A DNA stretch of 51,789 nt, counting the filler, from Circinaria calcarea (taxonomy: Eukaryota), in the NCBI GenBank assembly GCA_051942165.1. It is 3 parts of 3 records of this genome, joined end to end, with 100 filler letters (N's around TTAATTAATTAA, not from the genome) between each part and the next. Parts side by side here need not be neighbours in the genome. Positions count along the whole stretch, not along the records: positions 34,605 to 51,789 come from JAVECS010000283.1; 2 more parts are not named here. The stretch is one strand, 5' to 3'. This document shows, piece by piece, positions 35,567 through 51,789 of the stretch (the first letter of the stretch is position 1; the number at the start of each line of letters is the position of its first letter). The notes below the pieces were generated by a model, which saw nothing but the letters and a program-made list of their open reading frames with translations, searched no databases and had not been told where the DNA came from. A program made the position numbers and the translations under genes.

Positions 35567-37187
35567 CTACTTTTCCTGGGCGTTTCCATCCGGAAATAGA
35601 GCAACTTTACAGCCATTGGCGTTCCTGCACGTCAACCTTACTTCGCCCTTCCAAGCCCTATCGTCCCGACTTTCAATGCGCTTGAAGTCCCGTGCAATCC
35701 GGACCAGCACATACGAAGCCTCGACCAGCGCCTTGAGCTGTCCCATGCAGGATCGCTGGCCTCCTCCGAACGGCATGTACTCCCAAGGGCCCGGGTGGAT
35801 AGAATCCCAGCGGCTGGGATCGAATTCTTCGACGTTGCCACCGTATACCAAAGGTTCCCGATGGAGGGCGTAGAAGCTTGTGCCAACTCCTGTCCCCTTG
35901 GGTATGAAGATTGGAGACTTCCTATCAGCACCACCACCCGTGGGAAGCTTTGTGTCCGCCAATGAGACGCGGGCTAGCAATGGGAAGACCGGATACAACC
36001 GGAGAGCTATTGTGCGAGGTCAATAGAAGCCATTAAAAGAGCAGAAGCAACTTACATTCGAAGAGAATGTTGTGAATGAGTTTCGAGGTGGTGAGAAATT
36101 CGTAAGTCAACAAGTCTGGGCCGGCGGATGATATCTCGTCTCGTAACTGGTCCCAGATTAAGGGATGGCGGGACATGAGGAACAAAGTGTTGCTAAGAAG
36201 TACAGAGGTTGTCTCTTGGGAGGCCATCATTCCCTGCAGGATTTGACTGCGGATCTCGATCCTGTCGTCGGTCTGCTCTGCGAGTCCTTGGAGCATGCTT
36301 CGGATTTTGGGGCTAGCTCCAGCTTCTCTTGGCCCGTTTCCAGTTCTCGAAATCTCTTTCTGTTCCAAAGCTTTGTCGATATAGAAGTCCAGGAATTGAT
36401 GGGCCCGTTGGCACGACTCGAGCCACTTGGCCTTGGGAGCAAGGAAACTGAGACGACCTAGCATCACTCGGAGCCCTGTTCCAAAGAGGCCGTCATGGAA
36501 AGCCTTTCTGAATGTCTCTGCATCGAACGGGCTCCCTTGAGTTGCTTTATCAGAGACCGTGCTGAGGCCTGTTAGGAACTGCATCGATGTACGCATAAAC
36601 TGTGACGCATCCCTGTCAGCACGCTATGCCTAGATATGTCACTCGATCAGGCCTACAAGAGTGTCTAGCAAGGCTTGCAAGTCGAGAGTGGTCCCTGGTG
36701 CGGGCAGGTGGCCGAGGAGTTCATCTACTGCATTGGACAATGTTGAGAAGTCGATTGCGTTCGCTTTATTGAAGGTTGGCTTAAGCATTTTTCGTGAATG
36801 CTGCCAAGCAGCGCCATCAGTCGTGAGGAATCCTCGACCGCAGAGGGTCTCCATCGCGGGAAGTCTTAAAGGCTCTACGCCCCAGTCTTTGGCTGAGGTG
36901 TTGATGGCGTGGATATTGTCAGGCTCGATAGTCCATATGAAGCACTTGCCCACGGAGCTCGTTTGGAATGTTTTACTGTAGCGTTCATGGTACCGCACAA
37001 TGATGGGGATGTTCAGATGAGTCGCAAACATGAAATCCAGGCCAAAGATAGGTTCCTTGTGAGGGAATCTTGGTGGTAGATCGCTGCCATGCTGGCGGGC
37101 GAGATTGCGCTCCCTCAGTCTGTTCTGAAGATAGTAAACGAGCACAAGACACGCCCCAACGAAGCTCGAGCTGATAAGAAGCCCCAT
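35567..37187 (-). CDS. Cytochrome P450 (CYP52-clan-like), 3 exons
   Basis: N-terminal TM anchor, GFLTTDGAAWQHSRKMLKPTF, I-helix ASQETT, ExxR across an intron, FDPSRW and heme motif FGGGQRSCMG. Confidence 0.95.
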
Positions 37188-37724
37188 GTGCTCTTACAAA
37201 ATCCAGAGCACAATTGCTCCAACAGCTTGAAAACGAAATCGATATAGTATGCTCAGCAGCGTGACCTCTTGTGTCTGTGAAACTGAGCAAGGGGAAAGAC
37301 TGGAAAGTAAGGGGATACCTGGGGGCCCCCTTCTTGGAAGCATTCAGGCTACTTGACGTCCCCAATACTGTGCCGTGGGGGCGTTATATGCATGCAATAG
37401 AGTGGGCTCGCACACACCACACGTCCCGAGCGTGTGAGTAAAGAGTCTTCTCGCATTGGCGGTTCTGGCCCTCATGCAGGCAGCAGCCTAATGCAAAGTC
37501 CGGTTTGCGCCGAGCCGGGCATATGCAGTGGTACTGTCTTCGGTCAGTTGACTACAACCACATCGTGAGGGCTCGACTGCGCCGCTGAAGTGTGTGTTCG
37601 TGCTGAGCCTAGTCGTCGTGGAACTGCAGAATCAAGTTGCACATGTGGTAGTAGACCTACAGTCACATAAACGATTGTGTTCTCAACTTTTCCTACTGTT
37701 CTGTCTAGGTAACATTACAGCATC

Positions 37725-39426
37725 ATGTTTGCAGCTTGCAGACATTTAGCAACAGTCTCAATCTGTTTGTTGATCCTCTTAGCATTTCGCTATGTACAAT
37801 GTACCTTTTTCTCGAGATTGAAAAGACTTCCTGGCCCTGTTCTATCACGATTAACATGCTTTTATCGTGCCTTGCTGGTATTGTCTGGCAGCTGTTTTTT
37901 GCATTTTCGGGAGTTACACGCTCGTTATGGACCTATCGTGAGGACAGGTCCTAACCATGTGCTGGTATCGGATCCGGCTATGATAACGATTATCCTCGGC
38001 CTCGATAAAAACTTTGTTAAGGTACACGGCCACAAGACAATCCGACTTTCATATACTCATCTCAACAGAGTCGATTTTACGATACCTTCTCCCCTTTGTA
38101 TAAGGGGAAACCCTTCGATACGGTCTTCTCTACGCGAGACTCGGCCCGTAACAAAGCATTGAAACTGCCACTGGTTAAGAACATGACTGGACCAGTTTAT
38201 CTATTCAAGCCAACTATCAACGATTGCGTTGGAGTATTCATACAAGCCATGAATGATATGAAAGAGCAACCTGTGGATTTCAAGTCATGGGCCCAGTACT
38301 GGTCGTTCGACGTAACTTCACAGATGATTTTCGGCTGCCCCTATGGTTTCATGAGAAAACGTGGCGATATTGATGGATTACTGAGTAGGATGAATTTAGG
38401 GTTACGCTATGCTGCTATTATAGGACAAGTGCCAGAATTACACCCATGGCTAGTTGGAAACAACACAGTTATGTCCTTCCTATCAAGATTCCATAGCTTC
38501 CCTAATCCTACCGCAAAGATACTCAGGGAGGCCGAACGAAGGCTTGAAATGCACGACCACAAGCCTCATACTTGTGGAAATACCGTTCTTTGCAGGCTTG
38601 CTAGGGTTCAGGGCACCACAGATGGGCGATCGAGGAAGTTAGACGATGTCAACCTTCTCTTCGAGACATTGTAAGAACATCCTGCCACCGTGGGCCATGC
38701 TAATCTCTCAACAGTGTTGCAGCAGGCACGAGGGTTTCCGCGACCCTTGGGACAGTCTTCTATTTTCTGATGGAGAACCGCGCCACGTATGAGAAGCTTG
38801 TTCACGAAGTGAGGCATGACGAGAAATCTAGGATCTTCGATTCCGCCGTCAAAACCGATGCTTCGCTGAAGATGCCATATTTGTAAGTGTCCTTCAACCA
38901 AGTGCGATGAGAGGTAGGCTAGGATCCTAAAGTTATACACAGGGATGCGGTCATAAAGGAGGCGATGCGCCTTATTCCGACCAACTCCGCGCCGCTTGAA
39001 CGCTGTATACCTCGTGGTGGGATTGATATGCATGGCTATCAGATACCGGAAGGTACAATCATTAGCATGTCATCATATGTCATCCATCGTAACTCGGAGG
39101 TATACGGAGCGGATGTGGATAGTTTTTGCCCGGAGCGCTGGATGGAGTCAGATTTGGCTACGAAGGAGCGAATGGAAAAATGCTACCTGGCTGTAAGTTA
39201 TATCCCTTCAAGAATCACGATCATTGCTCAGATAGGGACATAGTTTGGCAAGGGCGCTCGTCGATGTACTGGTCAAGAACTGGCAATGCTGGAAATGCGT
39301 ATCTTTATCATTCAGGTTCTTCGTCGCTTCGATGTTGAATGGGCATCCCAGAAGCCACAGTGGAAGCTGAAAGTATATTGGCTGGTTGAACACCATAATC
39401 TGTCCCTAAAGTTCAAAGCTCGGTGA
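37725..39426 (+). CDS. Cytochrome P450 (pisatin-demethylase-like), 5 exons
   Basis: TM anchor, LPGP, HARYGPIVRTGPN, WSFDV, VIKEAMRL (ExxR), FCPERW and heme motif FGKGARRCTG. Stop TGA at 39424-39426. Confidence 0.93.
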
Positions 39427-50731: not shown

Positions 50732-50970
50732 ACACTGGAAGGAAAGAGCCGAGAAGCATGCTCGGGGGATTGTTAGTGACAAACGGAAGAAGAGTCACTA
50801 GATATAGATTCATGAAGTATAAAAGTGCAATTTAATATATAGTATCAGAAGTTCTGTATTGTTATATTTGATACCTTACTACGTCTACAGTCTTCCCCCG
50901 TACGCTACTTTACTCTTTGCCTAAGAACGCCGTGCTCACAGTTATTGAAAATCAACCCTCCATGCGAGCT

Positions 50971-51789
50971 TTACAATTCGTTTCTCGGCGCTGTCACGGC
51001 AAAGGTATCCCTGAGGGCGCTGATCGAGGGCGAGAACAGGTACTCGCCTCCTTTGGGCACAACCCACTGCATGCTGAGGGTCAGTGCGGTGCTTTGCATG
51101 TTGGGATCCGTGCCCGAGAGCGTGCGCGATGTGGGATCGGTGGTCTGACCGACAATGGGGTCGAAGCCTGGCGTCACTGGCTTCCGGACTGGGAAATCGG
51201 TATCGTTGCACCAGCCTGAGCCGGGATTTAGTAAATAGCTCATCAGAGGGGGTATCGGAGGAAAGGTGAACCTACTGTGCTGCATGAATTGGAAACCATT
51301 TACAATGCTGCTTTGATACGCCGCGAAGATGAGCCCGCGTCCCTGTTGCGTCTGTCCCGAGGTAGCTTCCTCTGCGGAGACTTCAGGTCCGAACTGAATC
51401 CCGCGACGAATGATCCGACGGTTCTCGGTAGGGAAACCCAAGTCTTCAAGGTCAGCTCGAGGATTCGTCTTGCGGACGTGCGCTGCGAAAGGGCATCGGT
51501 CTTGTGTCTGCTGGTCGCCCGGGAAATCATAGCGGAAGTCGTTGTTACGGTTTGGATCTGTGGCGAGTTCTTTGTCATCCTTCAATGGGGTGATATCGAT
51601 CGGTGCTCCTGCGTGCCATCAGTATATTCATTATAATGACCACAACTGAAGAACAAGCATATAGGACCACGTACCGCTTTTCCATCGCCCCATTAGGCGG
51701 GCCCCGAGGAGCTCAGCACCCTCCTCGGGAGTTATACCAGGGAAAGAGAGAGCATGGTCCTTTGTAAACTTGTCGAATTCAGGAACAAG
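50971..51789 (-). CDS. Dye-decolorizing (DyP-type) heme peroxidase, 3' part; 5' end outside window
   Basis: GRWKSGAPI across an intron, RNNDF, CPFAAHVRKTNPR (proximal His), IIRRGIQFGPE (distal Arg), GLIFAAYQSSIVNGFQFMQ, GFDPIVGQ and WVVPKGGEYLFSPS. Confidence 0.93.

Follow-up and report, generated by a model that had tools for sequence, protein, structure and literature searches.

A likely dikaritin-type gene cluster with a mostly single-core precursor in Circinaria calcarea

Introduction

Several fungal systems have been described in which proteins of the UstYa (DUF3328) family act on a small secreted peptide. Asperipin-2a (aprA/aprY) and phomopsin (phomA, phomYa-e, phomM, phomQ) depend on DUF3328 catalysts that cross-link or oxidise Tyr-rich cores, and their precursors are Kex2 repeat proteins with 6-residue cores. 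Mining of fungal genomes for UstYa-modified peptides relies on repeat precursors of this kind, and clusters without one stay unexplained. In the ustiloxin cluster of Aspergillus flavus and Ustilaginoidea virens (ustA, ustYa, ustYb, ustQ, ustM, ustC, ustT, among others), the precursor UstA carries many Tyr-containing 4-residue cores in Kex2-flanked repeats and is encoded beside two different UstYa genes, with a cytochrome P450 (P450), a methyltransferase and a transporter of the major facilitator superfamily (MFS) in the same cluster (in part PMC12048977 and PMC7329392). The small epichloecyclin gig cluster (gigA, gigB, gigC, kexB) also combines a secreted precursor, the repeat protein GigA, with a DUF3328 protein (gigB) and a methyltransferase (PMC10540207). 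A survey of lichen genomes from 2025 encountered UstY clusters with no detectable repeat precursor, and its authors suggest a single core peptide as a possibility (PMC12048977). The present work concerns a window of 51,789 nucleotides, filler included, from Circinaria calcarea (assembly GCA_051942165.1), by which we mean the whole stretch of DNA analysed, and in it a precursor-like peptide gene that lies next to two UstYa genes, UstYa-1 and UstYa-2. We consider it likely that these genes form a cluster for a peptide made on the ribosome and modified after translation (RiPP) of the dikaritin kind, with a mostly single-core precursor.

The Circinaria locus resembles the ustiloxin cluster in its secreted peptide encoded beside two different UstYa genes, in its P450, methyltransferase and MFS genes and in its Tyr-containing core. 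In place of many short repeated cores, however, the peptide has one C-terminal module of 27-28 residues, acidic, Tyr-rich and also rich in Asp, Glu and His. The methyltransferase is an O-methyltransferase (O-MT) of the Methyltransf_2 type, a seven-transmembrane (7-TM) Fung_rhodopsin protein is co-conserved, and a Pfam search of the open reading frames (ORFs) of 34610-51789 returned no S41 peptidase, flavin monooxygenase, pyridoxal-phosphate enzyme or sulfatase. The single module likewise sets the peptide apart from the asperipin-2a and phomopsin precursors; its segment Y-I-V-Y-P-D-I-D loosely resembles the phomopsin core, and searches of representative sequences and of 90% clusters gave no named match that would relate the precursors by sequence. 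Epichloecyclin differs further in its methyltransferase, which is of another type, and in having one DUF3328 protein where a conserved pair is found here (PMC10540207). Clan R1 of the lichen survey (Parmeliaceae) likewise has two UstY genes with HxxHC motifs and an O-MT gene in lichen-forming fungi, but there a tyrosinase, an FGE-sulfatase and the O-MT lie between the UstY genes, whereas here the UstYa genes are adjacent and convergent and the O-MT is outside the pair; the authors named no precursor for this clan (PMC12048977). No tyrosinase or sulfatase domain was detected in 34610-51789, a region with open contig ends. Kex2-processed repeat proteins (KEPs) consist of a signal peptide and Kex2-flanked repeats, and the window peptide is without repeats. 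Dikaritins are UstYa-dependent RiPPs of fungi whose products are macrocyclised by a cross-link at a Tyr side chain. The earlier note on this DNA had called the cluster dikaritin-type; the term fits the enzymes, two UstYa genes with two HxxHC motifs each, and does not fit the peptide as far as tandem Kex2 repeats are concerned.

Structure of the peptide gene

The window consists of fungal DNA with short introns, and spliced gene models, all of them open, were predicted from canonical short introns. The peptide gene starts with the ATG at 45301 on the minus strand and is divergent from UstYa-1, from which it is separated by a 733-bp spacer; UstYa-2 is about 1.9 kb away. The peptide gene thus has UstYa genes beside it, as dikaritin precursor genes do. 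Enumeration of GT-AG introns gave 74 open models for this gene. The most canonical of them has exons at 45301-45232, 45181-45155 and 45108 (or 45102)-45020 including the stop codon, separated by introns of 50 nt (GTAGGT..CTAAC..AG, with a CTAAC branch site) and 46 nt (GTAAAA..AG). The predicted product begins with a hydrophobic segment that resembles a signal peptide, continues with a short linker in which there is a single Arg, and ends in LDVDEYIVYPDIDRDEDVVYAYHAINDK. Exon 1 encodes the hydrophobic part, which ends in Ala-Ala-Pro as it does in annotated homologs, the signal peptide being judged by eye. Since the annotated homologs share both length and layout with this product, they support the splice model. 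An unspliced ORF of 39 aa (45301-45182) was considered as the precursor and was dropped once the spliced form had been found to match the homologs. The gene is present in a single copy in the window.

An unnamed, conserved peptide family

The ORF containing exon 3 (P0001, 35 aa) was compared with 1.84 billion representative sequences and matched 22 proteins at E<=1e-3 with 66-89% identity, all 22 at their own C-terminal end. A profile search of 90% clusters extended the set to 39 proteins, every one either "hypothetical" or nameless and all of them free of Pfam domains. Members with a species name belong to the Dothideomycetes (Bathelium mastoideum, Trypethelium eluteriae, Mytilinidion resinicola, Ophiobolus disseminans, Paraphaeosphaeria sporulosa, Periconia macrospinosa, P. 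digitata and Pseudopithomyces chartarum), Leotiomycetes (Hymenoscyphus fraxineus and Clarireedia jacksonii) and Lecanoromycetes (Thelotrema lepadinum). Public proteins from carriers of the family include KAK7182247.1 and KAL5381783.1 (Paraphaeosphaeria sporulosa), MCJ1326669.1 (T. lepadinum), XP_033576758.1 (M. resinicola), CAG8961586.1 (H. fraxineus), PVI08124.1 (Periconia macrospinosa), KAK3208229.1 (Pseudopithomyces chartarum), CAI6332297.1 (Periconia digitata) and KAI9667915.1 (B. mastoideum). Properly annotated members are 59-62 aa long and are built from a signal peptide, a linker of 12-16 residues usually with one Arg, and the module; the T. lepadinum protein (P0038) aligns across the window gene from 45301 to 45023. 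The family motif, D-x-D-x-[YWF]-[VI]-[VI]-Y-P-D-x-D-x-D-E-D-V-V-Y-A-Y-H-A-I-N-D-K, stands at the extreme C-terminus and is fitted by the window peptide. Among its invariant columns are two Asp, a Pro, two Val, two Tyr and an Ala, and the His is nearly invariant. Kex2-type sites are exceptional in the family: in one of the 39 members, that of B. mastoideum, two modules are present with Glu-Lys-Arg between them, and in one other, that of P. macrospinosa, Glu-Lys-Arg immediately precedes the module.

Metagenome contigs were also scanned with the family alignment, which gave 16 loci. Three of these, on contigs L001, L002 and L003, are true relatives with the same three-exon structure and a middle exon of 27-33 nt. 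The other 13 (L004-L016) were rejected, since they encode bacterial proteins, are high in GC (65-72%) and resemble the module in an internal motif of 13-15 residues. In these larger proteins the internal stretch (D-R-D-E-D-V-V-Y-W-Y-H-G-I) agrees with the fungal module at about 13 of 15 residues, a likeness which was taken as chance or convergent. The exon 3 product of the window is 82-89% identical to those of L001-L003 and to the annotated proteins, and the neighbouring enzymes are 35-75% identical to their counterparts. Over the 84-nt core the DNA identity between the window and L001-L003 is 69-75%, with 21-26 nucleotide differences, 16-19 of them at third codon positions; the 28 codons show 12-16 synonymous and 3-6 non-synonymous differences. 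Since the codon differences are mainly synonymous, the peptide is, by this comparison, under strong purifying selection. Taken on its sequences, the set is an unnamed conserved peptide family that is mostly non-repeat.

Searches elsewhere added no relatives. The best scores in the ESM Atlas (<=0.80) belonged to bacterial lipoprotein clusters and were judged to be at noise level, and the PDB held no relative of the peptide or UstYa-2 profiles. Six module strings occurred in no paper of the searchable literature (8.4 million papers, with subscription papers and the supplements of the lichen survey outside its scope), and the strings were also absent from three text supplementary files of the KEP survey.

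The UstYa pair and the conserved neighbourhood

The models of UstYa-1 and UstYa-2 each contain a transmembrane segment, N-terminal in UstYa-1, and two HxxHC motifs. A mechanistic model is available for CctR of cyclochlorotine biosynthesis, which is of the same enzyme family; it is membrane-associated, homodimeric and O2-dependent, with a binuclear copper centre built from its HxxHC(x)nHxxHC motif (PMC12435403). An AlphaFold2 model of the UstYa-2 ortholog from Paraphaeosphaeria sporulosa, of low confidence (mean pLDDT 62.8), showed a transmembrane helix and helices at the motif positions and was judged too poor for a fold search.

The gene context of the metagenome relatives was assessed by Pfam on 87 ORFs of L001-L003 and by tblastn with the window gene models. 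On L001 (17.4 kb) the order is P450-2 ortholog, O-MT, second O-MT, Fung_rhodopsin, UstYa-2, UstYa-1 and peptide. Identities to the window genes are 35-56% over pieces for P450-2, about 45% and 33-40% for the two O-MT homologs, 37-40% for Fung_rhodopsin, 49-75% for UstYa-2, 52% for UstYa-1 and 84% for the peptide. The orientations match those of the window, with the UstYa pair convergent and the peptide and UstYa-1 divergent, and the contig ends inside the P450-2 ortholog. On L002 (4.5 kb) the same layout is found, with UstYa-2 at about 70%, UstYa-1 at 48% and the peptide at 85%; the UstYa-1 ORF of this contig reads through introns and was not used as a protein. L003, with 1.2 kb upstream of the peptide, is too short for synteny. 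The trio of peptide, UstYa-1 and UstYa-2 is thus kept in both informative metagenome contigs. L001 also carries a protein-kinase-like ORF (11570-12628, plus strand) 1.5 kb downstream of the peptide gene, with no counterpart in the window.

The pairing extends to named genomes. A search with exon 3 of UstYa-2 gave 17 proteins, the best named ones being T. lepadinum MMC10_003332 (78%) and Paraphaeosphaeria sporulosa DPSP01_006967 (75%). The peptide genes of these two genomes are MMC10_003334 and DPSP01_006966, and the protein accessions of peptide and UstYa-2 differ by 2 in T. lepadinum and by 2 or 1 in P. sporulosa. Judged by these adjacent locus tags and accessions, the peptide gene and the UstYa-2 ortholog are one or two positions apart in both genomes, and we infer that the gene between them is UstYa-1. 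A further peptide (P0010) and UstYa-2 ortholog (P0044) probably share a contig, since the longest contig listed for each has 8172 bases. UstYa-2 orthologs of 64-73% identity occur in Botrytis aclada, Heterodermia, Lachnellula cervina, Diaporthe sp. and Amylocarpus, in whose genomes no peptide gene is annotated (this concerns annotation only, their DNA being outside the scope of the search).

These arrangements bear on the idea that the peptide works on its own as a secreted signal or effector, in a UstYa neighbourhood that is inherited but functionally uncoupled. Small secreted peptides are common in fungi, the link between peptide and UstYa genes is one of sequence and position, not of biochemistry, and the repeat hallmark of dikaritins is absent. 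Yet the divergent peptide/UstYa-1 and convergent UstYa-1/UstYa-2 layout is kept on two contigs at 48-75% enzyme identity, in two named genomes from different classes the distance between peptide and UstYa-2 is one or two genes, and the best UstYa-2 relatives are exactly those which adjoin peptide genes. An uncoupled peptide is therefore quite improbable. Since the arrangement of the peptide with two UstYa genes recurs in distantly related fungi, the genes probably belong to an undescribed pathway for a modified peptide, one that searches based on repeats would not pick up.

The earlier note had grouped the peptide, the UstYa pair, two P450s, the O-MT, the MFS, a DyP peroxidase and the 7-TM protein into one tailoring set, and had named missing synteny as evidence against it. 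On L001 the peptide, UstYa-1, UstYa-2, O-MT, P450-2 and the 7-TM gene do lie together, and for these the grouping stands as a co-conserved set; for P450-1, MFS and DyP it gains nothing, as they are absent from L001 and L002. The proposal in the same note that the small peptide is the backbone on which the two UstYa proteins act, with a P450 and the O-MT, has strong comparative support; the Kex2 repeats of a dikaritin precursor are lacking.

Evidence against a RiPP cluster

Several observations weigh against the RiPP reading. The peptide is far from a classical repeat precursor: Tandem Repeats Finder detected no coding repeat, a six-frame scan of 34600-51789 yielded no repeated 4- or 5-mer peptide, and the window peptide has one module and no Lys-Arg site. 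Its two exon-3 acceptors, 6 nt apart, are equally plausible, giving 61 or 59 aa, and the splicing is a prediction only. The five intergenic regions have no 8-10-mer in common, and tblastn found no homolog of P450-1, MFS or DyP in L001 or L002. Conservation extends over all 27 residues of the module, whereas known dikaritins have short cores, and such full-length conservation would also fit an unmodified peptide or an enzyme partner. DUF3328 enzymes are not exclusive to RiPPs, the substrate of CctR being cyclochlorotine, a product of a nonribosomal peptide synthetase (NRPS) (PMC12435403). Finally, the cluster contig is open on either side, as is L001 at its P450 end, and a core synthase off the contig is therefore possible.

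The last three points would all be accommodated if the UstYa pair, the P450 and the O-MT tailored a nonribosomal peptide or polyketide of an off-contig synthase. The peptide would then be a conserved accessory rather than the substrate, for instance a secreted acidic peptide, rich in His, Tyr and Asp, that partners the copper enzymes as a metal binder or in a chaperone-like way. The composition of the module, rich in Asp, Glu, His and Tyr, and its conservation over the full length agree with such a role; the nearest solved relatives of the O-MT act on small molecules; and there is room for a synthase, as the contig starts 960 bp from P450-1, the window ends inside DyP and L001 ends inside its P450. 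No synthase, however, was found in the 17 kb of the contig part shown here or in the 17.4 kb of L001, where Pfam detected neither a polyketide synthase (PKS) nor an NRPS and where the 7 kb beyond the peptide hold the kinase-like ORF and no synthase. In the cyclochlorotine pathway the substrate is an NRPS product, and no NRPS is seen in the part of the locus covered here, which, like L001, ends at or near a P450. One family member, moreover, has two modules split by a Kex2-type site, which is precursor-like. No such accessory peptide is known to us for DUF3328 enzymes, though no search aimed at one was made, and we count this against the proposal as well. On balance we regard an accessory role as unlikely and retain the peptide as the probable substrate of a dikaritin-type pathway.

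Gene inventory of the window

Pfam was run on 36 stop-to-stop ORF pieces from 35.5-51.8 kb. Six pieces, belonging to two genes, matched p450, and four, likewise from two genes, matched UstYa; Fung_rhodopsin and MFS_1 were each found on two pieces, Methyltransf_2 and Dyp_perox_C each on a single piece. The remaining 66 ORFs of at least 60 aa in 34610-51789 had no Pfam match, so that Pfam gave no sign of a tyrosinase, peptidase, terpene synthase, PKS or NRPS in that region. Pfam and the spliced models thus agree with the earlier note on nine genes of secondary-metabolism type unaccompanied by a PKS, NRPS or terpene synthase, and its three head-to-head pairs (P450/P450, peptide/UstYa-1 and UstYa-2/O-MT) follow from the model coordinates (Table 1). 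By the same coordinates UstYa-1 and UstYa-2 are convergent, as are DyP and O-MT.

Table 1. Positions of the predicted genes and other features along the window
Feature	Position	Strand	Details
Contig-join linker	34505..34604	.	44 N + TTAATTAATTAA + 44 N
Cytochrome P450-1	37187-35567	-	504 aa, three predicted exons; 960 bp from contig start; Pfam and model
Cytochrome P450-2	37725-39426	+	499 aa, five predicted exons; Pfam and model
7-TM Fung_rhodopsin (PTH11-like) membrane protein	41057-39606	-	366 aa; exon borders approximate; PF20684 on two pieces
MFS transporter	44098-42252	-	581 aa; directly downstream of peptide gene; Pfam MFS_1
Precursor-like peptide gene	45301-45020	-	Three predicted exons, 61 (or 59) aa
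Conserved core module LDVDEYIVYPDIDRDEDVVYAYHAINDK	45023..45106	-	28 codons, peptide C-terminus
UstYa-1 (DUF3328)	46035-46928	+	246 aa, four predicted exons, two of them with a Pfam UstYa match
UstYa-2 (DUF3328)	48006-47233	-	216 aa, three predicted exons; Pfam UstYa
O-methyltransferase (Methyltransf_2)	49305-50731	+	436 aa, three predicted exons; Pfam and model
DyP peroxidase, C-terminal part	51789-50971	-	Pfam Dyp_perox_C; cut by window end

The nearest solved chains of the O-MT are the Methyltransf_2 protein 7bqj, HpiI, ApiI, LepI and GedA, and its glycine motif for binding of S-adenosylmethionine is retained as judged by eye. Of these enzymes of the O-MT fold, LepI, HpiI, ApiI and the 7bqj protein act as pericyclases and not as methyltransferases. 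Since the O-MT resembles them (at 49641-50498), true methyl transfer should not be assumed. Between UstYa-2 and the O-MT, at 48963-49063, lie 1.9 copies of a 53-bp repeat unit (87% match), some 240 bp upstream from where the O-MT begins. The unit's length is not a multiple of three and the repeat is therefore non-coding; it may be a promoter element. P450-1 and MFS are counted as cluster members by position only.

The DyP gene looks from its sequence like that of an ordinary class-D secreted peroxidase. Peroxidases cross-link Tyr in the extensins of plants, and a DyP acting in the pathway could couple the Tyr-x-Tyr of the module in the same manner; the gene does adjoin the O-MT, and the module has an invariant Y-A-Y. 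This role is most improbable, as L001 and L002 are without DyP, the gene and the O-MT are convergent and have no promoter in common, and the closest relatives of the DyP are basidiomycete proteins (66-67%) and those of many lichen fungi (55-64%), with no locus tag near the peptide genes among the best 120 of 308 at E<=1e-20. DyP is probably a neighbour and not a cluster member, and given its lack of comparative support the O-MT was taken as the last supported gene on the right. The division of the closest DyP relatives between wood-rot basidiomycetes and lichen-forming ascomycetes at similar identity is an odd distribution in its own right.

The blocks at 17206-17305 and 34505-34604 are identical, each consisting of 44 N, TTAATTAATTAA and 44 N, and we take them to be six-frame-stop linkers that join concatenated contigs. 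The cluster contig (JAVECS010000283.1) accordingly begins at 34605, and genes to the left of this position need not be its physical neighbours. Three contigs thus appear to have been joined artificially in the window, and genes on either side of a join cannot be relied on as neighbours. The earlier note was right that both boundaries of the cluster are open; the left-hand gap that it described is the linker of such a join. In the left part of the window the Pfam scan covered 47 of 53 ORFs of at least 110 aa; the other six comprise one P450-1 piece that was scanned separately, three ORFs touching N runs and two nested in longer ORFs. The matches, taken as housekeeping genes, were Ras, FAD synthase, F-box, SDR, GH5, ABC transporter (ABCC), YDR124W-like and SAC3, and no PKS, NRPS or terpene synthase was found among the ORFs scanned. 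On the first contig an uninterrupted ORF of 1164 aa (12214-15705, plus strand) has no Pfam match. The middle contig, separate from that of the cluster, carries the ABCC-type transporter (20008-24661, plus strand; TMD0_ABC, ABC_membrane and ABC_tran).

Proposed pathway and significance

If the peptide is the substrate of the UstYa pair, it would enter the endoplasmic reticulum, and its N-terminal part (signal peptide and linker) would be removed at the conserved Arg or, in some members of the family, at Lys-Arg. Both UstYa proteins, anchored in the membrane, would then act on the module by oxidising C-H bonds and cross-linking its Tyr side chains, with the two (I/V)-V-Y motifs and the invariant Y-A-Y-H as candidate sites of modification. 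P450-2 might add a hydroxyl group or a biaryl link, the O-MT might methylate a phenol or a carboxylate, and the MFS transporter may export the product. A bolder proposal, which we put forward as a tentative one, is that the family represents an undescribed class of RiPPs in Dothideomycetes, Leotiomycetes and Lecanoromycetes. In this class a dedicated pair of UstYa proteins with binuclear copper, possibly a heterodimer, would place several cross-links in a single conserved acidic module of 27 residues, which a P450 and an O-MT would finish, to give a product far larger than any known dikaritin.

What is now available is a conserved, mostly non-repeat precursor family with its fixed partner set (two UstYa, P450, O-MT and 7-TM), a search motif, a list of carrier genomes and a minimal set of genes for reconstitution. 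Should the peptide prove to be the substrate, dikaritin-type chemistry reaches a much longer core than before, and the function of paired UstYa proteins becomes directly testable. If the class proposed above is real, peptides of this family would be the type of "missing precursor" for the many lichen UstYa clusters in which no repeat precursor is found.

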